DNA of 64,000 bases from Candidatus Parvarchaeum sp. (GTDB lineage: Archaea; Nanobdellota; Nanobdellia; Pacearchaeales; GW2011-AR1). Positions 2,544-53,246 of the stretch are shown one piece after another. Location of the stretch: positions 23,463-87,462 of the forward strand of contig DYFY01000003.1 of NCBI GenBank assembly GCA_020724955.1, in the 5' to 3' direction. The stretch's first letter is position 1. Every line of letters starts with the position of its first letter. The notes below the pieces were generated by a model that was given only the letters and a program-made list of their open reading frames with translations, did not search any database and was not told the origin of the DNA. The position numbers and the translations under genes were made by a program.

Positions 2544-2544
2544 T

Positions 2545-8416: not shown

Positions 8417-8446
8417 TAATAAAAAAATTCTTTGGATTATTAAAAT

Positions 8447-9136: not shown

Positions 9137-9188
9137 CCATATTCAAGAGGCTATAGTTTTATTAACTTATCTACACAAAAGGGAGTTA

Positions 9189-10109: not shown

Positions 10110-10142
10110 AACCTTTAAAAAGGGCTTTTTGTTTAAAAAAAT

Positions 10143-12284: not shown

Positions 12285-12286
12285 TC

Positions 12287-14839: not shown

Positions 14840-14893
14840 GCTCTATCTGTTAAAATAAATGTTATAAATCTTTTGTCAGTACATTATATAGCG

Positions 14894-35784: not shown

Positions 35785-36682
35785 TTGTCCTCCTTAAATC
35801 TTCGGATTTTAAAGCTATTTGTTCAATCTCTCCTGAATTTTCAAGTTGAATTTCAGCTGCATAAATTCTTAACTCCTCTGCAAACTCTGCCCCGCAAGAA
35901 CCTCCGAATATTTCTGATTTGGCTGCGTACAGCTGAGCCAGCTCTCCGGCTCTTTTCATTAGTCTCTGAACTTGACATTCATATATCTCAGGCTCTGCAA
36001 AAATAGCCCCATAAAGCAGGGCATCCCCATAGTAGCTTACGGTTTTTCCCTTTAGGTTGTGAGTTACTCTCTCCGAGCTGGTATCCACGTTTATGTCGCA
36101 CCCGGAATCAAAGACATTTCCCGAGAAACATACTTTAATGCTTTCTCTGTTGCATTCGCTCATCTGTGAGGCAACAACCACTCTTTCCGCACGGCTTTCT
36201 TCCACGCTCTGCGGCGGATTGACAAAACAATATTCTTCTGTATAAGCATAAATCAGGCTTCCCACTTCGAATGGCATTTCAAAAGATTTTACAAATAAAT
36301 GCAATCTCTCGCCCTGCTCAACAGAATCCGAGAATAAATATTTGTCATAAGATATTTTTTCAATTTCCGGCTCTCTAAATCCCCCAGAGATGCCTGCCGA
36401 ATTAGCGCTTATTCTTTGTTCTCCGAAATTTCCTTCCGTCCTGCATGAATTAAAAATCCTGGTTTCTGTCGGAAAAGAAACATTCAGCGAGCTCTCATCT
36501 TCAATTCCTGCTCCCATTGGGTCAAGCAAAATGGCTATTTCGCTGGTGAGTTCGGCTTCAGCCCTTCTTTCTCCGCTGTTTATCACTCCAACAACAGCAT
36601 AGATTGATATAAACAAAATTGCTGCGCCCGCAATCATTGCAAAAAGCCACGCGAAACTAAACTCAATCGCTCTTTTGTTCAT
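35756..36682 (-). CDS. Class-III signal peptide (type IV pilin-like) protein P2
   Basis: 308 aa. The N-terminus is MNKRA|IEFSFAWLFAMIAGAAILFISIYAV and the protein has multiple Cys. Confidence 0.55.
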   Translation of the reverse strand: MNKRAIEFSFAWLFAMIAGAAILFISIYAVVGVINSGERRAEAELTSEIAILLDPMGAGIEDESSLNVSFPTETRIFNSCRTEGNFGEQRISANSAGISGGFREPEIEKISYDKYLFSDSVEQGERLHLFVKSFEMPFEVGSLIYAYTEEYCFVNPPQSVEESRAERVVVASQMSECNRESIKVCFSGNVFDSGCDINVDTSSERVTHNLKGKTVSYYGDALLYGAIFAEPEIYECQVQRLMKRAGELAQLYAAKSEIFGGSCGAEFAEELRIYAAEIQLENSGEIEQIALKSEDLRRTNERLSCKFF

Positions 36683-36683: not shown

Positions 36684-37160
36684 TTATTCCAATACCCTCA
36701 CTAAGCCGTCGGTGCTTTCTTTTTCTATTTTTATTTCTATTCTCCCGCTTGCTGTTTCAAAACATTTGACTCCAGAAAAATCAAATCCAACATGCTCTAT
36801 TTTCCTGTTCCCGAGCTCAGCGCACGATTTTCTATACGGGTAAAAGAAAATATTTGAGTCAAGTTCGCCGTATGTTCTTAAATCAGAGTATTCAGGAATA
36901 TTGCTCGGCGCAGATATGTCCCCAAAACAAACTTTTTCCACGCCGGAAGGCACAGAAAGCCTAAGAGTATTTTTTGTTATTTCAGAATTCCATGCTCTGT
37001 CTATCGCCTCTTGAAGGTCGTTGTAAAAAATCCCTGCTTCTGCACATTTTCTGACATCCAGAAATTTTCCGATGGCGTAAAAGCCTGTAAAAATGATAGC
37101 CCCTATAAGAATTACGGAAAATATAAACCCAAATGAAATCTCAAACCCTCTTTTGTTCAT
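36684..37160 (-). CDS. Class-III signal peptide (type IV pilin-like) protein P1
   Basis: 158 aa. The N-terminus is MNKRG|FEISFGFIFSVILIGAIIFTGFYAI. Its stop lies 1 nt from the P2 start. Confidence 0.55.
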   Translation of the reverse strand: MNKRGFEISFGFIFSVILIGAIIFTGFYAIGKFLDVRKCAEAGIFYNDLQEAIDRAWNSEITKNTLRLSVPSGVEKVCFGDISAPSNIPEYSDLRTYGELDSNIFFYPYRKSCAELGNRKIEHVGFDFSGVKCFETASGRIEIKIEKESTDGLVRVLE

Positions 37161-37421: not shown

Positions 37422-39452
37422 ATGCAATTTAAATATCCAAAAACAAAAAAAATAGAAAAGATTGATAATTACCATGGAACAAAAGTTTCTGATTCCTATC
37501 AATGGCTGGAAAATTATTCTAATAAAGATGTTAAGGAATGGATAAAAAAACAAGAGAAACTGGCACATTCCTTCATAGATAAGCTTTCCCAGAAAAAGAA
37601 AATTCAAAAGAGATTAAATGAATTATGGAGATATGACGAAAGAACTATTCCTTGGGAAGTATTAAAAGGGAAAAGAATTTTTTTTCATGAGAGAAAAAAA
37701 GATGATGAAAAATGGGTTTATTTCACTCAGGAAAATCAAAGTTCAGAGAAAGTAGAATTGATTAACCCAAATAAATGGGGAGAAAAAGATTCTTTAAGTT
37801 TTGTGGTTCCTTCTGTAGATGGAAAATATGTGGCATTTGGAAAAGACAAGGGAGGCGATGAAAATCCCAAGATTAAAATAATGCACGTCGAGTCAAAAAA
37901 AATATTGAATGATTCAGTAACCGGATGGAAACAAGGCAGGGTTTCTTGGTTACACGACAATTCTGGGTTTTATTATTCCAGAAAGCCATTAAAAGGTGAT
38001 GTCAAAGAAGGGGAAGAATATTACTGGGACGAAGTTTATTTTCATAAACTTGGAACTTCTTCATCTGAAGATAAAAGAATATTTTTTTGTAAGGAAAAGA
38101 AAGAATATTATCATACCGCGAGTGTTACGGAAGACGGAAAATATGTTATTTTCTATAGAAGTACTTTTGGTAAATGCGAAGTTTATTTTAAGAAAATCAA
38201 TTCAGATAAAATTATCCCTATAGCCGAAGGATTTGATGCAGATTATCAAATAAACATAGTGAAAGATAAAATAATAATAAAAACTAATTTAGAAGCATCA
38301 AAAGGAAAGATTTTTGTTAGCGATATAGATAAACCGGAAAAAAACAATTGGCAAGAGTTAATCCCGGAATCGGAAGATAGCCTTCAGGATGTAAGCGCAA
38401 TTTCAGGCAATCTTTATATAGAATATCTTCACAAGGCTCATTCAAAGATCAAGATTTATTCTTTAGAAGGAAGATACCTTAAAGATGTGAAGCTTCCAGA
38501 TATTGGCAGTGCGGAAGTTTATGGTTATTTTTCAAAAAAGAACGTCTGGATCAGATTTTCTTCGTTTTTGTTTCCCTTTACAACTTACAAATACGATTTT
38601 GGTAAAAACGAGCTAAGTTTATTCTTTAAGCCACCAATAAATCTTAAAGTAGACAATTTTAGTACAAGGCAAGTAGAATATAAGTCCAAAGACGGAACTA
38701 AAGTAACAATGTTTCTTTTGAGCAGAAAAAATGTCAAAAAAGACGGAGAAAATCCAGCATTGTTAACTGGTTATGGAGGTTTTAACATTTCTATGACCCC
38801 ATATTTTTCTGCAACCTATGTTTCTTGGCTTGAAGCAGGAGGTATAGTCGCAATACCAAATTTAAGGGGGGGCGGAGAATATGGGAAAGAATGGCATGAA
38901 GCAGGAAAACTTGAAAAAAAGCAAAATGTTTTTGATGATTTTATCTCAGCTGCGAAATTTCTAATAAAAGAGAAATATACTAATCCTAAGAAGTTGGCAA
39001 TTTATGGAGTGAGTAATGGTGGTTTGTTAGTTGGAGCAGTTGCTATGCAAAGACCAGAACTCTTCAGAGCCGTTGTTTGCAGCGTTCCTTTATTAGACAT
39101 GTTGAGATATCATAGGTTAAGCATAGCAAATACTTGGGCTGTAGAATACGGAAGTTCAGAAAATCCGGGACAATTTGAATATATCTATAAGTATTCGCCT
39201 TATCATAATGTCAGAAAAAATGTAAAATATCCTGCAATGTTGATAACTACAAGTGAAAATGATGCAAGAGTAGACCCAATGCATGCTCTAAAGATGGTAG
39301 CTAAACTCCAAGAATTCAATCCAAATGGAGAACCAATTTTTCTTTTAGTAAGAAAAAATTCCGGACATGCCGGCGGAACGACTATCTCTAAAATAATAGA
39401 GCAAGTATCCGAAGAAATAGCTTTTCTAATGGAAAAAGTAGACACAAATTAG
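37422..39452 (+). CDS. Prolyl oligopeptidase (S9A serine peptidase)
   Basis: 676 aa. It has the N-terminus YPKTKKIEKIDNYHGTKVSDSYQWLEN, the catalytic GVSNGGLL (GxSxGG), and distal D and H regions (ENDARV, SGHAGG). Confidence 0.9.
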   Translation: MQFKYPKTKKIEKIDNYHGTKVSDSYQWLENYSNKDVKEWIKKQEKLAHSFIDKLSQKKKIQKRLNELWRYDERTIPWEVLKGKRIFFHERKKDDEKWVYFTQENQSSEKVELINPNKWGEKDSLSFVVPSVDGKYVAFGKDKGGDENPKIKIMHVESKKILNDSVTGWKQGRVSWLHDNSGFYYSRKPLKGDVKEGEEYYWDEVYFHKLGTSSSEDKRIFFCKEKKEYYHTASVTEDGKYVIFYRSTFGKCEVYFKKINSDKIIPIAEGFDADYQINIVKDKIIIKTNLEASKGKIFVSDIDKPEKNNWQELIPESEDSLQDVSAISGNLYIEYLHKAHSKIKIYSLEGRYLKDVKLPDIGSAEVYGYFSKKNVWIRFSSFLFPFTTYKYDFGKNELSLFFKPPINLKVDNFSTRQVEYKSKDGTKVTMFLLSRKNVKKDGENPALLTGYGGFNISMTPYFSATYVSWLEAGGIVAIPNLRGGGEYGKEWHEAGKLEKKQNVFDDFISAAKFLIKEKYTNPKKLAIYGVSNGGLLVGAVAMQRPELFRAVVCSVPLLDMLRYHRLSIANTWAVEYGSSENPGQFEYIYKYSPYHNVRKNVKYPAMLITTSENDARVDPMHALKMVAKLQEFNPNGEPIFLLVRKNSGHAGGTTISKIIEQVSEEIAFLMEKVDTN

Positions 39453-39731: not shown

Positions 39732-42071
39732 CTAAACAAAATTGCTTGCTCCTGCAACAAGACTGCATTGGTTTGTTCCGGGCTGATTTCCGAAATCATC
39801 AACGCATTTTATATGATATGTTTTTCCAGGCTGCCACTGGGCAAAATGCACTGTTTTTTTATCAACGTCCAGTATCTTCATCATTATTCCCGTGTTTGCC
39901 TCAAAATTGCAGTCGTTTAAAGAATAAGAACACTCAGCTTTCTCGCTTGTGATTATTTTTAAAGAGTCAACCCCTTCTTTATAAGCCCTTGTTATCAAAG
40001 GAGCTGTGTTGTCAGTTTCAACACTAAAGCTGACATTGGCAAAATCAGCATTTCCGCCAAGATCGACACACCTGAAATGATAATTGTAATTCCCGGAAGC
40101 GAGCTGTAAACTTTGTCTGTGTTTGAAGCTGTTTGTTTCAAACATTGCAATAAAGCTGTTTTCATCTCCCGTAGGACTAAAGTAACAGATGGCTTTTCCC
40201 TCTTCAGCTCCGTTGCTGGTTTCCAACTCAAGATCAACCTTCACAATTTCAGTGCTGTCAAAAATTTTCTCTCCTTCTTCTGGTTTGATGTCTATTATAT
40301 TAATCTCCTGGCTTCCCAACAGGCTGAATTCGTAGCTCTCTGTATTGACATTCCTGTCTTCCTCAGCTTTGCCGGGCTGGTCTTTGCATCTGAAATAAAA
40401 TTTGTTTTCCTGCCTGTCTTTTATTCCTGTTAAACTGGTTTTGCATTCATAAAGCTGTCTTGCATTCTGCTCATAAACCTCTGTAGAGCAGTTCATGGAA
40501 TTCTCCATGCTTTCATAAGCCTTGTCGTCTATGCTCCATTTGCATTCTGCAGGCTCATTAACAAAAGCAGTTATATCAATATTCTGGCTTCCAAATGCAA
40601 CAGGGCTTCCCCGCACTATTGATGTGTCTTCAATAATTGGAGGAGTTGTGTCTGGCGAAGGATCAACGCAGAAGCTAAACACAAACGCGTCCTCGTTTAC
40701 ATTTCCGTTGGCATCTCTGCACCTTACAAAAAAATCATATTTTCCGTCAGCGCCAATAATCAAATCCCCCTCTGCAGCTTCTGCCAAGGCATTAGGAGAA
40801 GGCAGTCTTAATGCCTGGGTGTGATTCTGCCTGAATAAGTTATTTTCTCCGAAGAAGAACCTCATGTCGTCAAATCTCATCTGGCTGTCTGTATCTATCT
40901 TGCATTGCGAAGGTTCATTTGTGGTCAGCCCAAATTCCAAAGCTGTAAACGCGGCAATGCATCCATTGGAGCTGTCTGTTCTAATTATTTTGGTTCCCAA
41001 AGCTGGTGGTCTTGTATCATGGCTTGTATATGTGTGCTTATCTGTCAAAGCGTCCTGCCAAGGAGTTATCGTCGGACTTGTGACATCACTTCTGCTTACC
41101 CAGACGCATTTTTCCTCGTCAGTGCCTGGATTCACGAGCTCGCATGCCTGCCCCAAACTCTTGCATCTGTATTCAGAGCAGGGCAATCCCCCGGAATTGC
41201 ACTGCTCGCAGTTGCTTCCCCCAAGAGGAGCCTCCCAAGGAAGGCATTGAAACTCAGCTATTTTCTGACTTTCCTCTTTGTACAACAAAACAAAAGTAAC
41301 AGCTGCCACTCCAATTCCTATTGCAGGAGCATAATTCAAAAAGAAACTACCTTTATCTAACAAGCCAAAACCACTTGGACCTAAAGAAGCTAAGCCCTTA
41401 TAAGACATTATTCCCGCAAAAGCTGCAATGCTTAACGCGTTAGTTGTTTCTTGCTCAACACCAGCAATTCCTCCTATCAATTGAATTGCTCCGACAACAG
41501 CCAAACTCCAAGCCAATCCTTCAAATAAATGAGCATACCCCCCTGTAATCTCAAGCCCTAAAAAGTCAATTTTCTTTCTGGAGGTTAAGGAAACCCCCTT
41601 ATCTGCCAAACCGCTTTTAAAAACATCAACCTGTTCATTAGGAACCGTATCTATTATTGTATCTCCCTCACCAAGCAGTCGCAAGTCTCCGTTAGAAGCT
41701 ACAGAAGTATCTTTAATATCTAAGAGATTTATTTTCTTTCCGCTAGGCGAAGTAAAAAAACTATCTTTGGAAATTGCAGAAGTTCCTGTAAGCCTTGCTC
41801 TTGATACACTGTCTACTTCTATTAAAGCAGCAGTTCCTTTACTTCCTGGTTTTGGCTGAATTCCTTCAAAATTCCATCCCATATATTGTTGTTGAGCACT
41901 TGTTCCTGGAGCGGGAGGACCAAGAATTTGAGAATTGGGAACTGGCTGCTCTTGCCCGCTAACAGCATTTGCCTCTCCGAGAATGAATCCAAATGCGGCA
42001 ATTGAAACCAGCATCAAAAATATCTCACCTAAACTAATGTTAACAATAAAGCTACTTCCTCTTTTCTGCAT
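39732..42071 (-). CDS. Large surface protein, the C-half homolog of the 1386-aa giant
   Basis: 779 aa. The order is a pilin-like N-terminus, a Gly/Ala-rich hydrophobic block, a Cys knot and four Ig-like modules. The N-terminus is MQKRG|SSFIVNISLGEIFLMLVSIAAFGFIL. The hydrophobic block is ...GLAWSLAVVGAIQLIGGIAGV...APAIGIGVAAVTFVLLY. It is followed by FQCLPWEAPLGGSNCEQCNSGGLPCSEYRCKSLGQACE. The four modules are about 110 aa each with the signature NEPxxCK...F[FY][FV]RC.D..GN. Confidence 0.6.
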   Translation of the reverse strand: MQKRGSSFIVNISLGEIFLMLVSIAAFGFILGEANAVSGQEQPVPNSQILGPPAPGTSAQQQYMGWNFEGIQPKPGSKGTAALIEVDSVSRARLTGTSAISKDSFFTSPSGKKINLLDIKDTSVASNGDLRLLGEGDTIIDTVPNEQVDVFKSGLADKGVSLTSRKKIDFLGLEITGGYAHLFEGLAWSLAVVGAIQLIGGIAGVEQETTNALSIAAFAGIMSYKGLASLGPSGFGLLDKGSFFLNYAPAIGIGVAAVTFVLLYKEESQKIAEFQCLPWEAPLGGSNCEQCNSGGLPCSEYRCKSLGQACELVNPGTDEEKCVWVSRSDVTSPTITPWQDALTDKHTYTSHDTRPPALGTKIIRTDSSNGCIAAFTALEFGLTTNEPSQCKIDTDSQMRFDDMRFFFGENNLFRQNHTQALRLPSPNALAEAAEGDLIIGADGKYDFFVRCRDANGNVNEDAFVFSFCVDPSPDTTPPIIEDTSIVRGSPVAFGSQNIDITAFVNEPAECKWSIDDKAYESMENSMNCSTEVYEQNARQLYECKTSLTGIKDRQENKFYFRCKDQPGKAEEDRNVNTESYEFSLLGSQEINIIDIKPEEGEKIFDSTEIVKVDLELETSNGAEEGKAICYFSPTGDENSFIAMFETNSFKHRQSLQLASGNYNYHFRCVDLGGNADFANVSFSVETDNTAPLITRAYKEGVDSLKIITSEKAECSYSLNDCNFEANTGIMMKILDVDKKTVHFAQWQPGKTYHIKCVDDFGNQPGTNQCSLVAGASNFV

Positions 42072-42115
42072 GCATTTAATAGAAAAGCGTTATTTATAAA
42101 GAATTCTCTTAAGAA

Positions 42116-42805
42116 TTACCTCTTTCTTTTCACGCCGCTGAAATCCCAATAGCCAATTTCAAATTTTATTCTTCCCCAAGCCTCATCGTCCACAAAAAGT
42201 CGCATCTCATATTTTCCGTTAGCAGAGTCTGTAGTCATCCCTCCAATTCTGTGAAGCTTTTTGTCATCAATTTCAAAGTTAAATTCACCTTTATCAGCAA
42301 ATTCCCCATTATACCAGCGTTCCAATAAGATGCCTACAGATTTTTTCCCTTCTGGCAACTCAGTAAAAAAATGTATATTATCGCCATGTCCAAAAGGTCC
42401 GCCAATTTTTTTATACTCATCAGGATAACTTATCCTACCATCTTCATTCAAATCTTCTGTTCCTGCGCAGGCAAACATCAATCTATGAGGAACTGGCGCA
42501 GAATCCACATTTCTAGTATTTCCAGATTCATAATTGTAAACATTAACATTTTGCTTGTTTTCGCTCTTTCCTGCTAAGGAATTAGCATAGCTTGTTGTTG
42601 CTCTTCCAGCAGCAATTGCTTCTGGCTTTCCTTGAGCTATTCCATATTGTTCCGCTCCTATCCCAGCCATAGTTGTAACAAATTGCGTGGCATCATCATT
42701 TTTGAACCTTATGCTTTCACATCCCGTTCCTCCAGCTAAAACTCCAGCAAGCCCAAGTGCCCCAATAGAATTTTTTATTCTTCTGTTCATTTTATCTATC
42801 TTCAT
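42116..42805 (-). CDS. Putative lipoprotein with an EF-hand-like calcium-binding loop
   Basis: 229 aa. It has a signal with a lipobox-like LAGGTGC and a loop DLNEDGRISYPD that fits the D-x-N-x-D-G-x-I-x3-[DE] pattern. Confidence 0.5.
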   Translation of the reverse strand: MKIDKMNRRIKNSIGALGLAGVLAGGTGCESIRFKNDDATQFVTTMAGIGAEQYGIAQGKPEAIAAGRATTSYANSLAGKSENKQNVNVYNYESGNTRNVDSAPVPHRLMFACAGTEDLNEDGRISYPDEYKKIGGPFGHGDNIHFFTELPEGKKSVGILLERWYNGEFADKGEFNFEIDDKKLHRIGGMTTDSANGKYEMRLFVDDEAWGRIKFEIGYWDFSGVKRKR

Positions 42806-42911
42806 CTTTAACTAATCTTCCAACATATTCGTCGATTCCTGCGCCAGTTACAGCTAAAAGAATTCTTTTCAGTCCATTCCTCACATCACCTCTGCCGCGA
42901 TGTTCAGACAT
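42792..42911 (-). CDS. Possible 39-aa small ORF with a strong SD
   Basis: The minus strand has GAGGAGATAGAATG, followed by MSEHRGRGDVRNGLKRILLAVTGAGIDEYVGRLVKDEDR. It overlaps the start of 42116..42805 by 14 nt. Confidence 0.2.
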   Translation of the reverse strand: MSEHRGRGDVRNGLKRILLAVTGAGIDEYVGRLVKDEDR

Positions 42912-43050
42912 TCTATCTCCTCAAGCAAAACAGAATATTTAAATCTTTCGATTTGTTGTAACTATAAAGAAATTACTACTTTAGCTTCTCACACTCACTT
43001 TCCAACCCTTGTGTTTCCTCATAACATGTGTTTGTTGGAAGCACGCCTCT

Positions 43051-44583
43051 TCAACTTCTCACAACTTCATATCCTTCTTTGTAACCTTTCTGATTCACCC
43101 AATTCAGCTTCGGCCCGCAGTCCCCTAAAGCCGAGCAGACATCAGCTCTTTGCTTTTCCCATTCTTCTGTCAAACATTCGCAGTTTTCAACACACTCTTC
43201 TCCTCCAAAAAGCCCTTTTTCGAATTTTACAACGCACTGCACATTTGCCTGGCTGCATAAGGCCAATGCTTCCTCGCTGTTCCAAAACTCCAGCCCAGGA
43301 GGGTTTTTAGGAAGGCAGCTCCCATCAGCGCTATCATTAAGCCCTATAGTAACCCCTTCTTTCCAAAAACAATCCCTTCTGTCAGTATTTTCGCAGTCAT
43401 CCTGATTTGCCTGAGCCAAACAATCCTGCCATCTATTAACTCTGCATGCTGCCTGAGAAAACTCTCTCCCTGAGAATTCTATTGAATCTTCAAGACATTC
43501 CTCATTTCTGAAATCAGCGCAGGACTCTGTGATTATTTCTCCATTAACGCAAATCTGCCTGAAAAATCTGCTTCCTACTTTGTTGACTCCGTCTTTTGTT
43601 GTTTTGCCATCCCCGACGCACCAGCTCTCTCCGTGCAGCCTGTCTTTACCTTCAGAGTCTTTGCAGTTCAAATCAGCGCATATATAATCTCCGTAAATTG
43701 CATTCCCCCCTGATTTGTCTTCGGCCCTGCAGAAACTTCCAAGAAGATAATTGCAGTTCCCGCAGCTTCTGCTGTTTCCGTTTCCGCTGTTCGGACTGCA
43801 GCTCTCAGCTTTGTTTTTTACATTGGTCCAATAATCCTGGTCTTCTCTTTTGGACGAATCGTAAATGTTGGCGGGATTTCCGCAGGTGTCCACGTAATAA
43901 ACCTCATCTTTTCCAGGAAGGCATGTTGTTTTGTCTGAAGGTCCGCAGTTTGTGCCAAGCTCATCCGCCGAGCATAATTTATCTTCGAAGAAGATTCCTG
44001 TAATAGTTCCGTTATTGATTCCTGAATCACATTCAGCCCTGGTTGTAAATTTGCATGTCCTCTCAAACTCAAAATCATAAACGCATGCTCCCTTGTCCTG
44101 ATTAGAAACGCTCTGAACACACGCAAGCTCATTGCTTATTGATTTGTCATAATTTGTCTCAAGCCCTAATGAAGCAGAAAGTTTTTTGCATCTCACTAAA
44201 GTCACAAAAGCAGCCTGGTCGCCGAGCTTGCAGCATCCAAGCTCGCACTGCGGAGGATTTTCTTCGTTCCATATTCCTCCATTTTGGTTGCAGGTTATCT
44301 GTGGAGTGTTGTCAAGGCATGTTCCCTCTGTACTGCTGTAACAAACACCTGGCTTGCAGAAGCTTGTAGACTCGCACGAGGTAGGAACGTTTCTTGCCCC
44401 TTCTGCGCACTCGCTTGGCAGAACATCCTGGCAAAAGGCCCCGGAATTAGTTCTCTCACAGCACACTGTGTTAGTAGCCTGAGCCTGCACAGAAAACACA
44501 TGAATAAAAAACAAAAACACAGCTCCTATAATTAGGGCTGTCGCTGGTTTCCTGCCAATCAATTTTATTGTTTTTGGTTTCAT
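43051..44583 (-). CDS. Secreted cysteine-rich protein, the N-half homolog of the 1386-aa giant
   Basis: 510 aa with a Sec-type signal (ALIIGAVFLFFIHVFSVQAQA). It has roughly 60 Cys by eye. It is collinear with residues about 70-745 of the giant, for example GKDEVYYVDTCGNPANIYD with GKDGVYWIDSCGNRENIYE, and SCGNCNYLLGSFC with SCGNCNRFAGSVC. Its ATG overlaps the upstream stop as ATGA. Confidence 0.6.
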   Translation of the reverse strand: MKPKTIKLIGRKPATALIIGAVFLFFIHVFSVQAQATNTVCCERTNSGAFCQDVLPSECAEGARNVPTSCESTSFCKPGVCYSSTEGTCLDNTPQITCNQNGGIWNEENPPQCELGCCKLGDQAAFVTLVRCKKLSASLGLETNYDKSISNELACVQSVSNQDKGACVYDFEFERTCKFTTRAECDSGINNGTITGIFFEDKLCSADELGTNCGPSDKTTCLPGKDEVYYVDTCGNPANIYDSSKREDQDYWTNVKNKAESCSPNSGNGNSRSCGNCNYLLGSFCRAEDKSGGNAIYGDYICADLNCKDSEGKDRLHGESWCVGDGKTTKDGVNKVGSRFFRQICVNGEIITESCADFRNEECLEDSIEFSGREFSQAACRVNRWQDCLAQANQDDCENTDRRDCFWKEGVTIGLNDSADGSCLPKNPPGLEFWNSEEALALCSQANVQCVVKFEKGLFGGEECVENCECLTEEWEKQRADVCSALGDCGPKLNWVNQKGYKEGYEVVRS

Positions 44584-45386
44584 GCGCTCTCTCCCAATCC
44601 ATACCCTGCAGGCCAGACAAGGCTTCTGACTGCAAAGTTGAACTCATCACCAGAAACAACATTTTTCAGCTTATATACTTTATAGTCTTCCTTCCTTATT
44701 TTCTCTATTTTCAAATCAGGGTAATATTGCATGTAAAGCAAAGTTTCAGAATCTCCTAAACTTGATTCAAACTGGATTATGCTCGTCGCTATGCTAAGCA
44801 GATTGTAAATCTCGCTGTCAATCGCAATGGAAAACCTGTTAAATTTCTGGCTTCCTTCCTTAGTTATTGTTACAGGAGATAAAAAGTCAACTATTATTTT
44901 TCCAGGGAGCAAGTCAACGTTAATCTCTCCCGCATCCGCCTGCACGCTGTAACCTCTTTCTTCATAATACTCTTTAAGCTCGCTGACACAGCTCTTAGCT
45001 CTTGGTTCAACTCTGCTTTTTATCTCTTTTTTGACATGGTCTACCAGCAGAGGCTGTTGAACAACACAAGGTTTGTAATTTTCCGAAGTGTAACAAAGGT
45101 ATTGTATCTTTTGGTTTTCATAACTGACAAAACTATCCGGCTCTATATATCCCCCTTGGATTGAAATTGCCTGCACGCTGTCTCTGACTTCAGGCTCTAT
45201 ACAATCTCTCAGAAATCCGGAAGGGCTTGCCTCTGTCCTCTGTCCGATATCCAGATTAAAATTTTGAGCTAGAAAAAAAATTCCGATTATAGCAAGAATC
45301 AAAACAGCAACTATGACAAAAACAGCTATTTGCCCCTTTTTTTCCATGAGGAAAAAAGCACAATTTTGTTTATAATCTTTCCGCAT
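44580..45386 (-). CDS. Class-III signal peptide (pilin-like) protein, module B (paralog of 49546..50367)
   Basis: 268-aa ORF containing ...MEKKGQ|IAVFVIVAVLILAIIGIFFLA. An alternative start is at 45348. The ATG at 45386 overlaps the stop of the giant gene as TAATG. Confidence 0.55.
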   Translation of the reverse strand: MRKDYKQNCAFFLMEKKGQIAVFVIVAVLILAIIGIFFLAQNFNLDIGQRTEASPSGFLRDCIEPEVRDSVQAISIQGGYIEPDSFVSYENQKIQYLCYTSENYKPCVVQQPLLVDHVKKEIKSRVEPRAKSCVSELKEYYEERGYSVQADAGEINVDLLPGKIIVDFLSPVTITKEGSQKFNRFSIAIDSEIYNLLSIATSIIQFESSLGDSETLLYMQYYPDLKIEKIRKEDYKVYKLKNVVSGDEFNFAVRSLVWPAGYGLGESA

Positions 45387-48300
45387 TAATAAACCCCTCC
45401 CCCAACCTGCAAACAGCTCCCGCGGTTTCCAAAATTATCTTCACATCTGATTGTGTAAATCAAATCTTTTTTGAAGCTTTGCAGGGCGTGCTTCAATTCT
45501 GTTCCCCCGATTTCCGTGGCATTGTCAAAAGTTTCTCCAATAAGATTGGTGCAGCTTTCTTCTGTAACATATTTGCAAACAGCGTTCTCGTCCGTGATAA
45601 CATTCAACACGCCATTTGTATCATAAACTCTTGTTATTAAAGGCCCGTCGTTGTCAAAATCCAGCGTGAATTCTGCTTTCCCCTCTGCGACATTTCCAGC
45701 AACATCCTCGCATCTTATTGGAATTGAATAATTGCCTTCAATAAAAACATTAAATTCAGGTTGTTTGTGTAAACTCTCTCCTGTCTCAAGAAATGCAGAG
45801 AAGCTGTTGCCATAGCCAAACGAGCAGATAGCTTTTCCATTTTCAGCACCTCCTGAAGTTTTAACTTCTAAAGTTATTCGTGTTGGACCTTCAGCTAATA
45901 TTTTTCCTGAAGGTTTAATTTCTGTAATTGTCAAAGCACTCTGGCTCTTCTTTAAATTATAAATCACGCTCTGGCTGTTTGCATTTCTCTCCTTGTTGTC
46001 TGGATTGCTTATTTCAAGCCATGGCTGGTCTTTGCATCTAAAGTAATAATTATTTTCATCCCCTAAAATAGTTAAATTTGCTTCACATGGAAATCCAAAC
46101 AAAGTTTGGTCTCCAATTTCGTTTTTGCAGAAAGCTTCATTACTCATTAACTCATAAGTTTCATCTTTTATGCTCCATTTGCACTCGGCAGGTTCGTTGG
46201 TATAGAAACTTATTTTTTTATCAGTAGCATCCAGCCTCACAAAACTTCCGCTTTCCGGGCTGAATTCTGAAATTATAGGAGGGGTTTTATCATCTTCAGG
46301 AGAAAGGCAGAAATTTATAACATATTGAGGAACATTGGCATTTCCATTTTTATCTTGGCATCTTACATACAAGTTAAAATCTGCCCTCTCGTTTTGATTT
46401 ATTCCAGCAGAAGACAAACTTGCCAGGCTTGGGAGAGCAAAGCTCATTGAATGATTTGTTTTGTATAGATTGCTTCCTCCGAAAAAGCCGGACATTTCCT
46501 CAAAGCTGTTGGTATTCACCACATCTGTTTTGCACTGTGCAGCTTCATCAGTTTTAATTCCAATCTGAACCTGTGTATAAACAGGAAGGCATCCGTCGGA
46601 GGTGTTTCCTCTTGCTTTAAATCCAGAGTCAGATATCTCAATATATTCAACATTATCAGATTTAACCTCAGCATTTTCGCTTATTTTCGGGGGAACAGAG
46701 TCGCTCGGAGAAATATTGACGCAAGCTTCTTCTTCAGTGCCTTCGTTGATGAACTCACATGTCTGCCCGAGGCTTTCACATTTGTATTTGTTGCATGGCA
46801 ATCCGTCTTCAGTATTTCCGCACAATTTGCAGTTCTTCCCGCCGGCAGGGGCCTGCCAAGGCATACATCTAAACTCTACTCTTTTTTCTTCACCCTGTCC
46901 AAGGTAATAAGCCAATCCCGTAGTAATCCCCGCGACAAGTCCGACAGGTCCCAGAAAGCTGAAGCTCAAGGCCAAGCCGGTTCCGGATAATGCAAGAATC
47001 CCTCCTGTAATGCCACTGGCAGCCCCGACAAACAAAGCCTGATTTCCTTTGAGCCCCGCCGCTTTCGCAACAAGCAAGCCGATTCCAGCACCAGCAGCAG
47101 CAGAGACCAGTGCATTTCCTACAACCATTGCGTTTGCAGAAAGGCTGTCTGCTCCAAGAAAATAAGGTATATTGGCAATTCCTGCACCTGCACCTTCTAC
47201 TCCTGCGAGATAAGCCAAAGCATAATCCAAAGCATAAACTCCTGCTCCTGCCAATCCCACAAGCTCAGCAAGCTTTTCATCGGCGTTGGGGTCTTGAGGA
47301 TTTATGTTGTAAATTGCATATATCTCCTCTTTTGTCAAAGGCTGAGCGCTTTGTCCTGGGACTGCTTTCACCAATTCTTTAAGGGATGAAACATACCTCT
47401 CTCCAAGCGGTGGAGAATCTTCTATAAAAACTCCGTCATCTGTAAACTCTCCCGCCACATTAATATGCGCCCCACAATCTCCGAGACTTATACAAGCGTT
47501 GTTCATAGTTTCGCCAAAAATAGCTTCCCTGCATTTAGTATTTGTACTGCTTTCAAAAAGTCCGCCTCTGTAGGTATCGCAGTTAACGCTCAAAATACTG
47601 CACAACTTTTCTGATATTTCACTATCTGCCTCAAAATGAGCAGGGTTTTTTGGAACGCATATTGAAAACTTAAAATCGTCATCTATGTCAACATTTTTTA
47701 AATAACAATCGGTGTTGGCTTCGCACTCTTCTTTGAGCCTTTCAGGATTTTCCTGATGCTCATTAGCGGCGAGACATGCCTGCCAGTTGTTTGCCCTGCA
47801 CTCTGCTCTGGAGTTTCCTATTTGAGTTGTTTGCTGAAAACAAACTTCTTTTCTTCCAGGGGCGCATGGCTCAAGTATGACTTCTCCCTCACGACATACT
47901 TCTTTATAATGGCTGCTTCCCGGAATGTCAACGCTCCTTGCTGAATTCCCTGATAAGTCTATTATTTTTTTGTTCAGTTTATTTTGATTGCATATCTCTC
48001 CTGTAGATGCTTTAAACCCAAAAGAATATATTCCTGACTGGAAATTGTCAGGAATTCTAAATCTGTATTGAATTCCGGCGTTTCTGTTTTTTCTAATAAG
48101 CTCTATTTTTTCCAATGGTCCAGATGCAACGCTATTTTCTCGTGAAGGAAAGTAGTTTTGAAATTCAAGAGAATCGGCAACATTATTTCCTTGAGAGTCC
48201 AGCACGATAAGCTCAACAGAGATGTCTCTTAAAACAACATCATCAAGGCTCGCAAAAAATACATCGGCAGTGGCATAAACAAAATCTCCCGGCTTCAAAT

Positions 48301-49546
48301 CACCACTATCTAAAAAAATGGCTCGAACATTTATAGAATTTCTCCACTCTAAGTTTCCTATACTGGTTTCTCCAAAGCCACTTGGAGTTTCTCCGCATAA
48401 ATTGACATCAGGAGGTTCAATAAAATTTTGTTCAGGGCTTATCTCTCCATCAACCCCAATTTGTCCCTCTGTCACGCACCAGCTTTCCCCATTTTGTCTT
48501 GCATTTCCCCACCTGTCTGTACAGCCAAGATTTCTGCAGACAAAGTTTCCGTCAATAGGTTTGGTTGTTTTAGAGCTTGCAGGGCTGCAAACGCTTCCAG
48601 CAAATCTGTTGCAGTTCCCGCAGCTGGCAGCGCTTCCTAATGGGTCTCCTTGAGCCCCGAGCTCGCAAACATTTTCATCATTCAAATCCATGACCTTTCC
48701 ATTATTCCAGCTTCTGTCTTTTGCAGCCTGGCTTCCCGATTCGTAAATGTTTTCTCTGTTTCCGCACGAATCAATCCAATAAACTCCGTCTTTTCCTTCA
48801 ACACAGCTGGTTGTTTTTTGTCTTTCACACTCTGTATTTAAATCAGGATTCGAGCATAAATATCCGGAATAAAATTGCCCTTGTCTGTTTGCACACTCCT
48901 TTTTTGTTGTAAACTTGCATTTATTCTTTTCCCTTTCTGGATTGGCGGAAACACACGCTCCCTCGAAATCAGGGTCAATCATCGCGATACACTGAATTTC
49001 ATTGTTAACATCAGCATGGAAATTAAAGGTATTGCCTTCTGAAATTATTGCGCATTGCTGCTCGGTTGCAAGCTGTGCATTGCTTCCGAACAAACAGCAT
49101 CCCTGTCTGCATTCAGGGATTTCATTTATTCCATTTTCATTCCATTCAGCTCCGCCCTCTTCGCAAAAAAACTTTGGGCTGTTCGGAGTGCAAGTTCCAG
49201 AAATTTTATCTATACAAGTCCCTGTTTTGCACTGGCTTACAGCTACAGAAGAAACCGGGATACACGCTTCAGAACATTTAGAATCGCATTCACTACTCAA
49301 GTATTCCTGGCATTTTTTGCCTTGAATATCAACAAGGCATGTAGAAATAGAGATTTGAGTTTGCGCGCTGACTATTCCTTTAGAAAGCCATCCTAAAACA
49401 AGCTCTCTGATTTTAACAATCAGCCTGCTTTCTTCGGCATCTCCGCTGACAGCCATATAACTTGATTCGTGAAATATATACGCAAATGCAAAAATAGCGC
49501 ACACAATAATCATTATCTCAGATATGGCTGCCACTTCTTTTTTCAT
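45386..49546 (-). CDS. Giant (about 1386 aa) cysteine-rich membrane/surface protein equivalent to the 510-aa and 779-aa proteins fused
   Basis: I placed the start at MKKEVAAISEIMIIVCAIFAFAYIF (ATG at 49546, overlapping the upstream stop as TAATG); the track ORF starts at 49570. The domain order is an N-terminal TM helix, then a Cys-rich region with a CARDB-like insert. A Gly/Ala-rich hydrophobic block follows, then FRCMPWQAPAGGKNCKLCGNTEDGLPCNKYKCESLGQTCE and Ig-like modules. Confidence 0.65.
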   Translation of the reverse strand: MKKEVAAISEIMIIVCAIFAFAYIFHESSYMAVSGDAEESRLIVKIRELVLGWLSKGIVSAQTQISISTCLVDIQGKKCQEYLSSECDSKCSEACIPVSSVAVSQCKTGTCIDKISGTCTPNSPKFFCEEGGAEWNENGINEIPECRQGCCLFGSNAQLATEQQCAIISEGNTFNFHADVNNEIQCIAMIDPDFEGACVSANPEREKNKCKFTTKKECANRQGQFYSGYLCSNPDLNTECERQKTTSCVEGKDGVYWIDSCGNRENIYESGSQAAKDRSWNNGKVMDLNDENVCELGAQGDPLGSAASCGNCNRFAGSVCSPASSKTTKPIDGNFVCRNLGCTDRWGNARQNGESWCVTEGQIGVDGEISPEQNFIEPPDVNLCGETPSGFGETSIGNLEWRNSINVRAIFLDSGDLKPGDFVYATADVFFASLDDVVLRDISVELIVLDSQGNNVADSLEFQNYFPSRENSVASGPLEKIELIRKNRNAGIQYRFRIPDNFQSGIYSFGFKASTGEICNQNKLNKKIIDLSGNSARSVDIPGSSHYKEVCREGEVILEPCAPGRKEVCFQQTTQIGNSRAECRANNWQACLAANEHQENPERLKEECEANTDCYLKNVDIDDDFKFSICVPKNPAHFEADSEISEKLCSILSVNCDTYRGGLFESSTNTKCREAIFGETMNNACISLGDCGAHINVAGEFTDDGVFIEDSPPLGERYVSSLKELVKAVPGQSAQPLTKEEIYAIYNINPQDPNADEKLAELVGLAGAGVYALDYALAYLAGVEGAGAGIANIPYFLGADSLSANAMVVGNALVSAAAGAGIGLLVAKAAGLKGNQALFVGAASGITGGILALSGTGLALSFSFLGPVGLVAGITTGLAYYLGQGEEKRVEFRCMPWQAPAGGKNCKLCGNTEDGLPCNKYKCESLGQTCEFINEGTEEEACVNISPSDSVPPKISENAEVKSDNVEYIEISDSGFKARGNTSDGCLPVYTQVQIGIKTDEAAQCKTDVVNTNSFEEMSGFFGGSNLYKTNHSMSFALPSLASLSSAGINQNERADFNLYVRCQDKNGNANVPQYVINFCLSPEDDKTPPIISEFSPESGSFVRLDATDKKISFYTNEPAECKWSIKDETYELMSNEAFCKNEIGDQTLFGFPCEANLTILGDENNYYFRCKDQPWLEISNPDNKERNANSQSVIYNLKKSQSALTITEIKPSGKILAEGPTRITLEVKTSGGAENGKAICSFGYGNSFSAFLETGESLHKQPEFNVFIEGNYSIPIRCEDVAGNVAEGKAEFTLDFDNDGPLITRVYDTNGVLNVITDENAVCKYVTEESCTNLIGETFDNATEIGGTELKHALQSFKKDLIYTIRCEDNFGNRGSCLQVGGGVY

Positions 49547-50367
49547 TAAAATCCTGCGGGAATGGCGCACCCCCTTATAGCTATATGCATTTTCTTTCCT
49601 GTATTTTTATGCTCTATAGTATAAATCTCTGTCGAATCAGACATGACATTTTTGCGGACATCAAAATCCCTATAAAGCAGGCTGTATCCTTCAGCAGAAA
49701 AATGGCAGAATTGCGCTTCCTGCCTGACAATTTCAGAAGCAACATAACCAAGCTCGCCCAGCGGAGTCGGTAAAGTTGTCTTTATTTCCTCAAAAACCTG
49801 GCTGCTTCCAGAGCCAGAGACAACTATGTTTCCTGTCATTAAGATTTCGGCAGTCTCAGGATTCAGCATGACCTTTACACTTTCTATTTCTCCGGAAACA
49901 GCAAAATTTCTTCTTTCTGCTTCCTCTCTAAAAGAATTGAGGCATTCAGCAGCACCGGAGCTGATTTCTCTCTCAATTTCTCTCTCAATTTCACTCAAAA
50001 GAGCCGGATGCTGGTTTATGCAAGGTTTGTAATAATTTATGTTCTCGCACAAATATGTAGCTTTAATGTCATTAAAAGTCTTATAGTTTTGAGGATTGAC
50101 AAATCCTCCCTGCTCAATTGCGCTGTCTATCTTCTTTCTGGCTTCCTGCCTTATGCATTGGTCCAGGTAAGTTTCAGGATTGAACTCAGCACTTCCGGAA
50201 ATACCAGGAGAAATTCTAAAAGCAAAAAACAAAGAGACAACAGCTATAATAATAATAGCAACAATGATGAAGATAGCCACCTGCCCTCTTTTTTGCAAAT
50301 CAAATTCATTTCTTATGTTTACCAAATTTAACCTCACAGAAAAATTTAATTGCTTCCTCAACAACAT
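49546..50367 (-). CDS. Class-III signal peptide (pilin-like) protein, module A
   Basis: 273-aa ORF containing ...DLQKRGQ|VAIFIIVAIIIIAVVSLFFAF. The ATG at 50367 would overlap the RHH gene by 62 nt. A TTG at 50298 would give (M)QKRGQ..., parallel to MEKKGQ in its paralog, and is an equally plausible start. Confidence 0.5.
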   Translation of the reverse strand: MLLRKQLNFSVRLNLVNIRNEFDLQKRGQVAIFIIVAIIIIAVVSLFFAFRISPGISGSAEFNPETYLDQCIRQEARKKIDSAIEQGGFVNPQNYKTFNDIKATYLCENINYYKPCINQHPALLSEIEREIEREISSGAAECLNSFREEAERRNFAVSGEIESVKVMLNPETAEILMTGNIVVSGSGSSQVFEEIKTTLPTPLGELGYVASEIVRQEAQFCHFSAEGYSLLYRDFDVRKNVMSDSTEIYTIEHKNTGKKMHIAIRGCAIPAGF

Positions 50368-50470
50368 GAGAAATATTTCTATATGGGCCTTCTTTTATGA
50401 CTCCCTCAATTTTTCTTTTTGTTTCAGGATCAACTGTAGCCGATATTCTGGTCTTGTTCTCTTTCCTCAT
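50306..50470 (-). CDS. Ribbon-helix-helix (CopG/Arc/MetJ-type) DNA-binding protein
   Basis: Hand-translated 54-aa ORF below the track cutoff: MRKENKTRISATVDPETKRKIEGVIKEGPYRNISHVVEEAIKFFCEVKFGKHKK. It shows the beta-strand, helix, helix pattern of RHH proteins. It is the first gene of the minus-strand array. Confidence 0.6.
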   Translation of the reverse strand: MRKENKTRISATVDPETKRKIEGVIKEGPYRNISHVVEEAIKFFCEVKFGKHKK

Positions 50471-51665: not shown

Positions 51666-53246
51666 ATGTCTGAGAATCCAGAAACTCCGAAGGTTAAGAG
51701 CATAGCCAGACTTTATTATTCAAATCCTGCCGTGAAAGAGGCTATTTTTGAATTCGCTAAAAAAAGGGAAGTTGTTCCGAGGTATTATGAGGGGTTTGGA
51801 AAAAGGCCGGATACTCTGCAATACCCTGATGACATTCAAGGTTTGGTTAACAAAGGAGCAACCTCTTTCCACGCGTCAGAAGAAATCTGGACAGACCCTC
51901 TTGAAATAAATTCCGAAATGTCGCAGGAAGAGCTTTCCTCGCTAAGAGATTCATGGGACTTGCTCATAGACATAGACTCTCCCTATTTGGATTATTCAAA
52001 AATAGCTGCAAGGCTTATAATCAGCGAGCTTGAAAATTATGGAATCAAATCCTACGGCCTGAAGTTCTCCGGTTCAAAAGGGTTTCACATAATTGTGCCA
52101 GCGAAGGCCTTCCCAGAAAATTTTAACGGAGTAAAAACAAAGTTAATGTTCCCCGAATGGCCGAGAGCCATATCCGAATATTTAATGAATAAGATAAAGC
52201 CTTTTTATAACAAAGAAGTCGGAGCGCTCGGAATAAACTTTCAGGCTCTGAAAGAGAGGACAAACCTCTCCAAAGAAGACGTGGTTGAAATGTTATGTCC
52301 TAACTGCAATTCATCTGCCAAAAAAACCAACCTTGTTTTTCTTGAATGTAATCGTTGTGGCAACAAGCAGATAAAACCGAATTATAAAATCACAAAACGC
52401 GCTTTAAAGTGCATCGAAATCACTTGCCCAGGAGCTTACGAGATTAAGGAAGAAAAAGAGCTTTTTTCATGTGAAAACTGCAGTTATTCAAGTTTGAACA
52501 AGCTTGACTTCAAAACAAAGCATATGGTAGTTCACACTCCCGAAGCGAAAAAGCTAAAATTTTCTGAGGAATTCAAAGAAGAGGTTTCAGCTTCAAAGCT
52601 CGGCTCTCTGGATTTGGTTTTGGTTTCTTCCAGGCACTTATTCAGAATGCCCTACTCTCTTCATGAGAAGACCTCGCTGGCAAGCATAGTCTTGGACAAG
52701 TCAGAGCTTCAGGCTTTTTCTCCAAAAGATGCAGGCCCCTTGAAAGTTAAAATAAAAGATTTTTACAAAACTCCAAATCATGCAGAGGCTCTCTCTCTTT
52801 TGTCAGAAGCGTTAAAATGGAAATCTCTTCAGGAAGCCGGACACGAGAAAGAGTCATACAAAAAATACGAGGGCTTCCAGGAAACAGATTTTTCAAACAT
52901 AACTGAAGAGATGTTTCCAAAGCCGATAAAAAAACTTCTTAAAGGCCTGACAGACGGCAGAAAACGCGGGCTTTTTGTGCTCATCACGTTTCTGCGCTCT
53001 TCAGGGTTTTCAGCAGATTACATAAATAAATCTGTGCGCGATTGGAATAAGAAAAATTCTCCTCCGCTCAAAGAAGGATATATTAAATCACAGATAGAAT
53101 GGCATTTGAAACAGAAGAAAAAAATTCTTCCTCCAAACTATTCAAATCAGAGTTTTTACAGAGACTTAAAGCTTTTAGATTCAGAGCCGAAATTTAAAAA
53201 TCCTTTGGCAGAGCTTTCAAGCATTGCAAAAAGGCAGAAAGACTAA
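51666..53246 (+). CDS. priS: Archaeo-eukaryotic DNA primase: PriS catalytic domain fused to a PriL-CTD-like module
   Basis: 526 aa. It has AEP motifs DLLIDIDS, FSGSKGFHIIVP and LFRMPYSLHEKT, plus a Zn ribbon (CPNCNS...CNRCGN). The C-terminal segment MFPKPIKKLLKGLTDGRKRGLFVLITFLRSSGFSADYI...ILPPNY resembles the PriL C-terminal domain but has no Cys. Confidence 0.8.
   Translation: MSENPETPKVKSIARLYYSNPAVKEAIFEFAKKREVVPRYYEGFGKRPDTLQYPDDIQGLVNKGATSFHASEEIWTDPLEINSEMSQEELSSLRDSWDLLIDIDSPYLDYSKIAARLIISELENYGIKSYGLKFSGSKGFHIIVPAKAFPENFNGVKTKLMFPEWPRAISEYLMNKIKPFYNKEVGALGINFQALKERTNLSKEDVVEMLCPNCNSSAKKTNLVFLECNRCGNKQIKPNYKITKRALKCIEITCPGAYEIKEEKELFSCENCSYSSLNKLDFKTKHMVVHTPEAKKLKFSEEFKEEVSASKLGSLDLVLVSSRHLFRMPYSLHEKTSLASIVLDKSELQAFSPKDAGPLKVKIKDFYKTPNHAEALSLLSEALKWKSLQEAGHEKESYKKYEGFQETDFSNITEEMFPKPIKKLLKGLTDGRKRGLFVLITFLRSSGFSADYINKSVRDWNKKNSPPLKEGYIKSQIEWHLKQKKKILPPNYSNQSFYRDLKLLDSEPKFKNPLAELSSIAKRQKD

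Follow-up and report, generated by a model that had tools for sequence, protein, structure and literature searches.

A stretch of 64,000 nucleotides from a genome of Candidatus Parvarchaeum sp. (assembly GCA_020724955.1, contig DYFY01000003.1), hereafter termed 'the window', contains a head-to-tail series of six minus-strand open reading frames (ORFs) between positions 39732 and 50367. In order of reading they encode a prepilin-like protein (pil273), a giant protein, a second prepilin-like protein (pil268), a protein of 510 residues (N510), a putative lipoprotein (lipo229) and a protein of 779 residues (C779). On sequence comparison, these genes belong to a cell-envelope cluster that is conserved across Pacearchaeota-type DPANN archaea and that holds two related modules; each module consists of a prepilin-like protein, a 'head' of about 450 residues that is rich in disulfides, and a membrane-embedded 'stalk'. 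In module 1 the head lies within the stalk polypeptide, directly after its N-terminal helix (the giant, or 'fused', protein); in module 2 the head (N510) is separate, and the stalk (C779) retains that helix ahead of a variable linker.

The giant reading frame extends upstream to a GTG codon at 49570 (1394 residues); the ATG at 49546, which yields 1386 residues, is the start that agrees with the homologues, and all residue numbers given for this protein are counted from it. The junctions of pil273 with the giant gene, of the giant gene with pil268 (which has a single base, at 45386, in common with the giant's stop codon) and of pil268 with N510 (4 nucleotides, 44580-44583) all overlap by 1-4 nucleotides. 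Such overlaps, together with an overlap of the head and stalk genes in one related locus (L063), suggest co-translation.

Paralogy and conservation of the two modules

A first-pass annotation of the window, made from the sequence alone, proposed that the N-terminal half of the giant protein resembles N510, that its C-terminal half resembles C779, and that a paralogous pilin-like gene leads each module. The motifs that it quoted are present in the sequences, and BLASTP alignment confirms both resemblances: residues 58-367 and 539-696 of the giant protein align with residues 29-332 (35% identity, E 2e-47) and 333-494 (35% identity, E 7e-18) of N510, and residues 796-1375 align with residues 170-763 of C779 (36% identity, E 3e-99). 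The two prepilin-like proteins are also paralogues (26% identity, E 1e-39), and both carry a prepilin-type signal peptide. These similarities greatly exceed what chance would produce. N510 and C779 align with distinct, non-overlapping parts of the giant protein, and C779 additionally matches its N-terminal helix.

Residues 368-538 of the giant protein, an insertion of about 170 residues, are missing from N510 and from all homologues. This insertion matches the Pfam family DUF4625 below threshold (E 2e-4), and is 27% identical (E 4e-7) to the product of window positions 28172-28417, which is part of a 559-residue surface protein (CARDB/DUF4352-like, 27569-29248). It is placed in a surface loop of the head that is modelled with low confidence, where the predicted local distance difference test score (pLDDT) dips at residues 321-340 of the 510-residue model. 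Coverage is low for other long homologues (1317-1383 residues), in which this loop may hold inserts of another kind.

The fused and split arrangement recurs far beyond this genome. Five assemblies contain an identical giant protein flanked by the same genes, and the fused protein has 413 homologues; each of the best 120 is a full-length fused protein (1107-1386 residues). The free head has 1566 homologues, the best 120 of which are stand-alone proteins (491-565 residues, 59-82% identical); the free stalk has 514, the best 120 again being stand-alone (559-992 residues). Relatives of the locus all come from metagenome-assembled genomes labelled Pacearchaeota, Nanoarchaeota or 'Woesearchaeota' (DPANN), and at least 581 species-level genome stretches encode one (a single genome per species was scanned).

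Gene order was then counted by tblastn comparison of the window proteins with the best 80 loci of these stretches. A pil268 gene and a free head gene lie downstream of the fused gene in all 65 loci that extend more than 3 kb past it, and the stalk gene is present in 33 of the 38 loci that extend more than 8 kb past the head gene. The conserved order begins with genes for a 411-residue and a 605-residue protein, a primase (on the opposite strand) and PCNA; it continues with a small ribbon-helix-helix (RHH)-like ORF, pil273, the fused gene, pil268 and the head gene, then between zero and three lipobox genes, and finally the stalk gene, four further prepilin-like genes (pil158, pil308, pil170 and pil179), a winged helix-turn-helix regulator and a surface-layer (S-layer) gene.

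Neighbour-joining trees of the head and stalk domains separate the fused from the split copies in 30 of 30 bootstraps, in both trees, and the orthologues of each copy are much more alike across species than are the two copies within this genome. Because the trees separate the copies and identity between orthologues exceeds that between paralogues, the sequence data place the duplication and the structural change before the divergence of all sampled species. The two modules have since changed at different rates. In paired comparisons across about 78 loci, identity to the corresponding window protein is 38% for fused heads versus 52% for free heads (Wilcoxon p 1e-13), 36% versus 42% for fused and free stalks (p 2e-7) and 35% versus 42% for pil273 and pil268 (p 5e-12); by this measure the split module is the slower-evolving of the two.

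A few loci depart from the common layout. In L063 (9641-22565) two tandem fused genes precede the split pair, and in L077 (7390-17853) two modules of pilin plus fused gene do so; the extra fused copies in both loci have even cysteine counts (64-66). One 3,066-bp contig (L071) is labelled 'uncultured Methanosarcinales', and its tblastn hits, at identities of 33-39%, have essentially the coordinates and query ranges of those in the matching part of L080, which the same study binned as 'Woesearchaeota'. The contig has probably been mis-binned, and hence provides no evidence of the family outside DPANN.

Structure, cysteine parity and nested geometry

Profile searches of Pfam, NCBIfam, PHROGs, PADLOC and PDB sequences returned nothing above threshold for the fused, head, stalk, lipobox and prepilin-like proteins. 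Immunoglobulin (Ig)-like Pfam matches of window proteins lie below threshold (Big_13 PF19077 or DUF4625 PF15418; 15-23 bits against a cut-off of 27), and many stalk orthologues have precomputed hits to PF19077 or PF15418. An AlphaFold2 (AF2) model of the stalk, computed from a 120-sequence alignment (pLDDT 83.2), together with the C779 sequence, yields an N-terminal helix or signal (residues 6-37), a variable disordered linker (about 38-170), three Gly/Ala-rich helices (180-264), a seven-cysteine 'knot' (276-322) and then approximately four Ig-like beta-sandwich domains, each beginning with a D-x-T-P-P-x-I-type motif. Glycines are conserved in the membrane helices, though the helices overall are weakly conserved. 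A Foldseek search with the rod gave 463 matches to tandem Ig, FN3 and cadherin ectodomains (best E 1.6e-13); since the TM-scores are low (0.1-0.3), this modelled likeness is a generic one. The head, modelled from a 107-sequence alignment (pLDDT 88.1, predicted template-modelling score 0.74), is beta-rich with about 41 conserved cysteines, and Foldseek found no match for it in the PDB (best E 1.2) or in BFVD (best E 0.32); relatives of the head were thus detected neither by sequence nor, in these two collections, by fold.

The cysteine content of these proteins obeys a simple parity rule. Cysteine counts are odd in free heads (55 of 57 species-level loci and all 58 sequences of a database set; typically 41, 43, 45 or 47) and odd in free stalks (38 of 40 and 70 of 71, respectively; typically 21, 23 or 25), and they are even in fused proteins (77 of 82 and 47 of 49; typically 60-72). 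The counts vary in steps of two; of the 62 conserved cysteines, 41 belong to the head part and 21 to the stalk part. Changes of cysteines in pairs are typical of disulfide-bonded proteins. Because two odd halves sum to an even whole, the parity predicts a single disulfide between head and stalk, which would form within one chain in the fused protein and between two chains in the split pair. The individual Ig-like domains of the stalk have even counts (4, 4, 2 and 4). The parity argues that both halves are extracellular, and presumably fully disulfide-bonded; the even domain counts and the Ig-like fold likewise predict an extracellular rod.

Heme (CxxCH) and iron-sulfur motifs were considered as the cause of the abundant cysteines and were rejected by eye. 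A separate compositional feature of the heads is a strong depletion of N-glycosylation sequons (N-x-S/T) in both families, to 0.30 and 0.41 of expectation (48 of 49 and 57 of 58 sequences); in the window (heads at 43051-44481 and 47459-49375) the giant's head has none, against about seven expected. The stalk rods show no such depletion, and in the S-layer protein the sequons are enriched (1.65).

The relationship between the two modules is not one of simple end-to-end joining. The N-terminal helix of the fused family (consensus kk.ia.FEI.LLi...fAFsYi..E) resembles that of the stalks (kr...(Q/E)IFLLi.s.fAFaFii.E...VSA), and a profile of the N-terminal 40 residues of the fused proteins matches the N-termini of 60 of 71 stalk orthologues (best E 3e-11). 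The same profile matches none of 58 head orthologues, none of 252 prepilin-like proteins and, within the fused proteins, none of the internal helices; the possibility that this helix is itself pilin-like was ruled out by the second of these results. The free heads have an ordinary Sec-type signal peptide ending in VSA, and a nearly invariant VSA stands directly ahead of the head domain in the fused family. As the stalk and the fused protein have this N-terminal helix in common, the fused form looks like a stalk into which a head has been inserted after the first helix or, equally, the split pair looks like one from which the head has been lifted out. A stalk counterpart of the fused-specific linker segment (residues 697-795) with its weakly hydrophobic helix (TMa) was sought and none was found, as was the case for a relic of the head in the variable linker of the stalk.

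Between the free head and the free stalk genes of the window lies lipo229, which has 11 representatives among 1.84 billion proteins. A first reading of the tblastn results took the gene to be unique to this genome; this was overturned by clustering and profile searches of ORFs in the head-stalk gaps, which revealed a divergent positional family with members of 120-290 residues. In lipo229 and in 25 homologues at the same position the N-terminus is hydrophobic and leads into [ST]-G-C, and position -3 of lipo229 is G rather than L, V or I. The family occupies the gap in 25 of 46 loci that have both head and stalk genes, sometimes in two or three copies, and is absent from more distant genomes, where head and stalk genes abut (11 bp apart in L054) or overlap by 1 nucleotide (L063). 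Because it fills the gap in this fraction of loci and is absent where head and stalk adjoin, the lipobox gene is best described, from its distribution, as a later, sub-clade-wide and fast-evolving occupant of the gap, and not as a private acquisition.

These observations bear on how the locus arose. The first-pass annotation described two module copies that differ by a gene fusion or fission, the split one having acquired a lipoprotein gene of its own. Two paralogous modules, one fused and one split, are indeed present; the event is not this genome's, the joining is not end to end, and the lipobox gene is not peculiar to this copy. A local origin, in which the module was duplicated in this genome, one copy was then simply fused or split end to end and the split copy later gained the lipoprotein gene, is thus a very improbable history, refuted in both its timing and its geometry: the collinearity and paralogy on which it draws are real, and a gene does separate the halves, but the same fused-plus-split layout is found in at least 65 species-level genomes, the trees separate the copies cleanly, the N-terminal helix that the stalk has in common with the fused protein indicates insertion or excision, and a lipobox family sits in the same gap elsewhere. 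The tree of both halves across relatives, which the annotation had called for, cleanly separates fused from split copies and does not polarise the order of events (head inserted or head excised). An artefact, whether through chimeric assembly of the fused gene or through decay of a second fused gene into a split pseudogene, has a probability close to nil and is rejected. It entered consideration solely as an a priori possibility raised by the annotation; chimerism is at odds with the more than 120 full-length fused homologues and the same arrangement in five assemblies, and decay with split genes that are intact, more conserved than the fused copy for both head and stalk, and represented by the numbers of free homologues cited above.

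Possible functions of the cluster

Pacearchaeota and their relatives are abundant, uncultured and metabolically minimal archaea that are thought to live attached to hosts, and we know of no molecules identified as making this contact. Literature searches found no published description of this family or of the cluster. The present finding is a larger one than the gene fusion or fission first proposed: comparison of sequences and models indicates an ancient, clade-wide cluster whose head domain matches no fold in the PDB or BFVD and is predicted to be joined covalently to the stalk. What emerges is a near-universal, unannotated surface gene cluster of the group, made a candidate host-contact structure by the recurrence of its layout in dozens of relatives; two of its largest proteins are ancient variants, one fused and one split, of a single head-stalk design. 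The single disulfide joining the free head to its stalk is a concrete prediction; the head, having no detectable relative in sequence or among solved structures, is a target for structure determination; and the locus provides a natural example of a domain nested into, or lifted out of, its partner, with both forms long kept.

Pacearchaeota have been reported to be strongly host-attached, and pili-like appendages have been seen on ultrasmall cells of unassigned lineage (PMC7906910). Archaeal type IV pilus loci encode 'large signal-peptide proteins, possibly adhesins' (Makarova et al. 2016, PMC4858521), and pilin genes can sit far from the genes for the ATPase and platform (PMC4858521; preprint 10.64898/2026.04.22.720090).

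The best explanation of the locus as a whole, which we consider probable without regarding it as secure, is that ancient paired modules, each with its head and stalk joined by a disulfide, form surface spikes or adhesin-like structures. In such a scheme the free head would dock on its stalk and be tied to it by one intermolecular disulfide, with the intramolecular equivalent in the fused paralogue; the two head-stalk complexes, the six prepilin-like proteins and the S-layer would together form the spikes, which would serve in organisation of the envelope and in contact with other cells; and the fast-evolving fused version and the conserved split version may share out the work. We infer a role in surface adhesion or in the envelope, with which the S-layer and glycosylation genes in the vicinity agree. 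The earlier 'Rosetta-stone' argument that the two halves act together is strengthened by the synteny, by the abutting or overlapping head and stalk genes of L054 and L063, and by the cysteine parity. A bolder extension of this scheme would make the head-stalk complexes and the six prepilin-like proteins a lineage-specific apparatus that recognises, holds and possibly taps hosts, in which the disulfide-stapled head is a new fold, the fused version sets host specificity and the disulfide-linked split version supplies the core attachment or conduit; this proposal is speculative and rather unlikely.

Several points weigh against the spike or adhesin reading. The parity argument is an indirect one, and the odd counts might alternatively reflect one unpaired cysteine in each half. 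The AF2 model of the stalk has three helices between linker and rod, with a cluster of Lys and Arg residues after the last of them; by the usual rules, the helix count and the positive-inside rule would put the rod in the cytoplasm. Hydrophobicity and positive-inside analysis of the stalk therein conflicts with the disulfide evidence, the conflict mapping to stalk residues 170-275 (window 41247-41564) and fused residues 752-888; the middle helix of the stalk, which is the least hydrophobic, may not span the membrane. The data are compatible with insertion and with excision of the head alike, and the absence of fold relatives for the head covers the PDB and BFVD only. No secretion ATPase (PilB/ArlI/VirB11 family) was found in the 64-kb window or within 10 kb in two related loci (L002 and L003), and no platform protein (PilC/TadC/ArlJ; T2SSF) or class III signal peptidase (PibD/FlaK/EppA; Peptidase_A24) in the window; the platform protein and the prepilin peptidase were also not found within 10 kb in two relatives. 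The Pfam scan of the window took in every named gene and almost every other ORF of 120 residues or more, the few unscanned ones overlapping named genes on the opposite strand. Because the ATPase, platform protein and peptidase were not found nearby, the locus is not classed as a complete type IV filament system, and its link to a pilus is indirect.

The main rival to surface spikes or adhesins is a role in anchoring the S-layer, in which the large proteins would act as anchors or envelope scaffolds (functionally like the stalk protein SlaB of Sulfolobales) that hold an anchorless S-layer protein, and the prepilin-like proteins would form a short pseudopilus or serve as further anchors. Such a role is possible, though we regard it as doubtful. 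It would account well for a cluster that closes with an S-layer gene in many genomes, for an 838-residue S-layer protein that has a signal peptide and no C-terminal membrane anchor, for stalks that are membrane-embedded rods of Ig-like domains, for the lack of filament machinery nearby and for the position of the cluster among core genes and its near-universal presence in the clade. It accounts less well for two paralogues of unequal rate and for lineage-specific head insertions, which look more like interaction surfaces, and the large proteins have no likeness in sequence or fold to SlaB-type proteins beyond generic beta-sandwiches. A long shot, and a good deal less credible, is that the Gly/Ala-rich helix bundles oligomerise as a membrane channel while the heads bind a partner cell, providing a conduit for host metabolites, lipids or DNA. 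The conserved glycines of the membrane helices, the minimal metabolism and strong host attachment of Pacearchaeota (PMC7906910) and the near-universal presence of the family would all suit a channel, but the helices are weakly conserved, no similarity to any transporter, secretin or translocon was seen, and the cluster includes no ATPase or nuclease partner.

Several known systems have features in common with the locus. Type IV minor-pilin and adhesin operons (such as fimU-pilVWXY1E, which includes PilY1, and archaeal type IV pilus loci) similarly place several small prepilin-type proteins beside one or two very large surface proteins with conserved cysteines; here, in contrast, the large proteins have polytopic Gly/Ala-rich helices and a head without a fold match, the Pfam scan detected no DUF2341/PilY-like domain, and ATPase, platform protein and peptidase are lacking from the window. 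In the two-component S-layer of Sulfolobales (SlaA/SlaB), the membrane stalk SlaB is anchored by a single C-terminal helix. The present locus is similar in that a membrane-anchored beta-sandwich rod is encoded beside an anchorless S-layer protein, and differs in that the anchor consists of several helices ahead of the rod, in its additional disulfide-rich head and two paralogous versions, and in the lack of sequence similarity. The stalk also resembles tandem Ig-like rod adhesins (Big_13/DUF4625; cadherin, PTP-delta and GhpA-like ectodomains) in being modelled as a string of Ig-like domains, whereas its seven-cysteine knot and membrane bundle have no counterpart there. Finally, 'Rosetta-stone' pairs of fused and split genes have reportedly been used (by Marcotte and by Enright, in 1999) to infer protein-protein interaction. 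As in such pairs, the same two domains occur here in one polypeptide and as two neighbouring genes; unlike the usual case, one genome and one operon hold both forms as ancient paralogues, one domain is nested within its partner and not joined to its end, and the cysteine parity independently predicts a specific covalent link.

Map of the cluster and neighbouring genes

The features of the locus are collected in the table below. All six small families (273, 268, 158, 308, 170 and 179 residues) have a canonical prepilin-type N-terminus that is kept over 24-74 orthologues, as judged at the level of motif (a short charged N-region, a [KR]-[GAS] cleavage site and about 20 hydrophobic residues); the Pfam Class III signal and Pilin_N models gave no match on these proteins.

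Features of the two modules and of the associated cluster, in window coordinates (a slash within a motif marks the putative cleavage or lipidation point)
Feature	Positions	Strand	Evidence or remarks
RHH-like small ORF, 54 aa, first of cluster	50306-50470	-	Pfam RHH_1 E 0.029, below threshold; kept at same position in 24 other loci
pil273, prepilin-like, module 1, 273 aa	49546-50367	-	class III-type signal peptide ..QKRG/QVAIFIIVAIIIIA..; KGQ-hydrophobic motif kept in 65 orthologues
Giant (fused head and stalk) protein, module 1, 1386 aa from ATG	45386-49546	-	BLASTP and homologues
Fused protein, TM1, N-terminal hydrophobic helix	49460-49540	-	homologous to C779 N-terminal helix
Fused head, first part, residues 58-367	48446-49375	-	aligns with N510 29-332
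Fused head, insertion of ~170 aa, residues 368-538, Ig-like	47933-48445	-	lineage-specific
Fused head, second part, residues 539-696	47459-47932	-	aligns with N510 333-494
Fused-specific linker and weakly hydrophobic helix TMa, residues 697-795	47162-47458	-	without C779 counterpart
Fused protein, Gly/Ala-rich membrane helices TMb-d	46895-47161	-	similarity to C779 and hydrophobicity
Fused stalk: 7-Cys membrane-proximal knot, then about four Ig-like domains	45386-46894	-	36% identity to C779; domains by homology
pil268, prepilin-like, module 2, 268 aa	44580-45386	-	..EKKG/QIAVFVIVAVLILA..; 74 orthologues
N510, free head protein, 510 aa	43051-44583	-	Sec-type signal peptide ending ..VQA/Q; disulfide-rich domain, 43 Cys
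Gap between N510 and lipo229	42806-43050	-	TATA-like TTTAAATA at about 42935 and part of a 39-aa ORF
lipo229, 229 aa	42116-42805	-	signal peptide and lipobox-like ..LAGGTG/C; fast-diverging family
C779, stalk protein, 779 aa	39732-42071	-	BLASTP and AF2 model
pil158, prepilin-like	36684-37160	-	MNKRG/FEISFGFIFS..; directly after stalk gene in relatives
pil308, prepilin-like	35756-36682	-	MNKRA/IEFSFAWLFA..; N-terminal motif and synteny
pil170, prepilin-like	35272-35784	-	..SSRG/QMKVQQMAFVL..; N-terminal motif and synteny
pil179, prepilin-like	34778-35317	-	..MKKG/QEEIVGFIII..; N-terminal motif and synteny
Winged-helix regulator, HVO_A0114 family	34422-34781	+	E 2.4e-17; divergent, between pil179 and S-layer gene; kept in at least 21 other loci
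S-layer protein, 838 aa, last gene of conserved cluster	31503-34019	-	Pfam S_layer_C PF05124, 37.8 bits against cut-off 23.9, E 1.9e-9

A TATA-like TTTAAATA lies about 70 nucleotides upstream of the RHH-like ORF at the beginning of the cluster. This ORF overlaps the annotated start of pil273 by about 60 nucleotides, and pil273 orthologues have much shorter N-regions (median length 257 residues); on account of both, the true start of pil273 is probably downstream of the ATG at 50367. A second copy of the TATA-like element, that in the gap near 42935, is probably the promoter of lipo229. It stands about 25 nucleotides upstream of the minus-strand ORF of 39 residues (42792-42911), which overlaps the start of lipo229 and for which no homologue was found in the other loci examined.

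The window also encodes FtsZ/SepF, aIF5A and Spt5, as well as the PCNA and the single-ORF primase of the conserved order, a set of proteins that identifies the source as archaeal. The primase ORF (526 residues, 51666-53246, plus strand) matches the small subunit at its N-terminus (E 1.8e-7) and, weakly, the large subunit at its C-terminus (E 0.0016), which suggests a fused PriS-PriL primase; it adjoins PCNA in relatives too. Beyond primase and PCNA lie the two conserved proteins without a family, of 605 residues with 28 cysteines (53282-55099, plus strand) and of 411 residues (55220-56455, plus strand); both have a signal peptide and a C-terminal membrane anchor, are syntenic in most relatives and are possibly further envelope components.

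A prolyl oligopeptidase gene (Peptidase_S9_N plus S9, E 1e-82; 37422-39452, plus strand) stands between the stalk gene and pil158. Because pil158 directly follows the stalk gene in the relatives examined, the sequence comparison identifies the peptidase gene as a lineage-specific insertion into the cluster. At the far end of the window, a minus-strand ORF that runs past its boundary (61571-64000) encodes three Laminin_G_3/concanavalin-like lectin domains (E 1e-77) and a domain resembling the receptor-binding domain of clostridial neurotoxins, and is a probable further surface adhesin. Toward the opposite end, positions 1641-16435 harbor a glycan-synthesis island with several glycosyltransferases, FkbM methyltransferases, a GDP-mannose dehydratase-like epimerase, a carbamoyltransferase and a Wzx/MurJ-like flippase, a gene content that is consistent with surface glycosylation.

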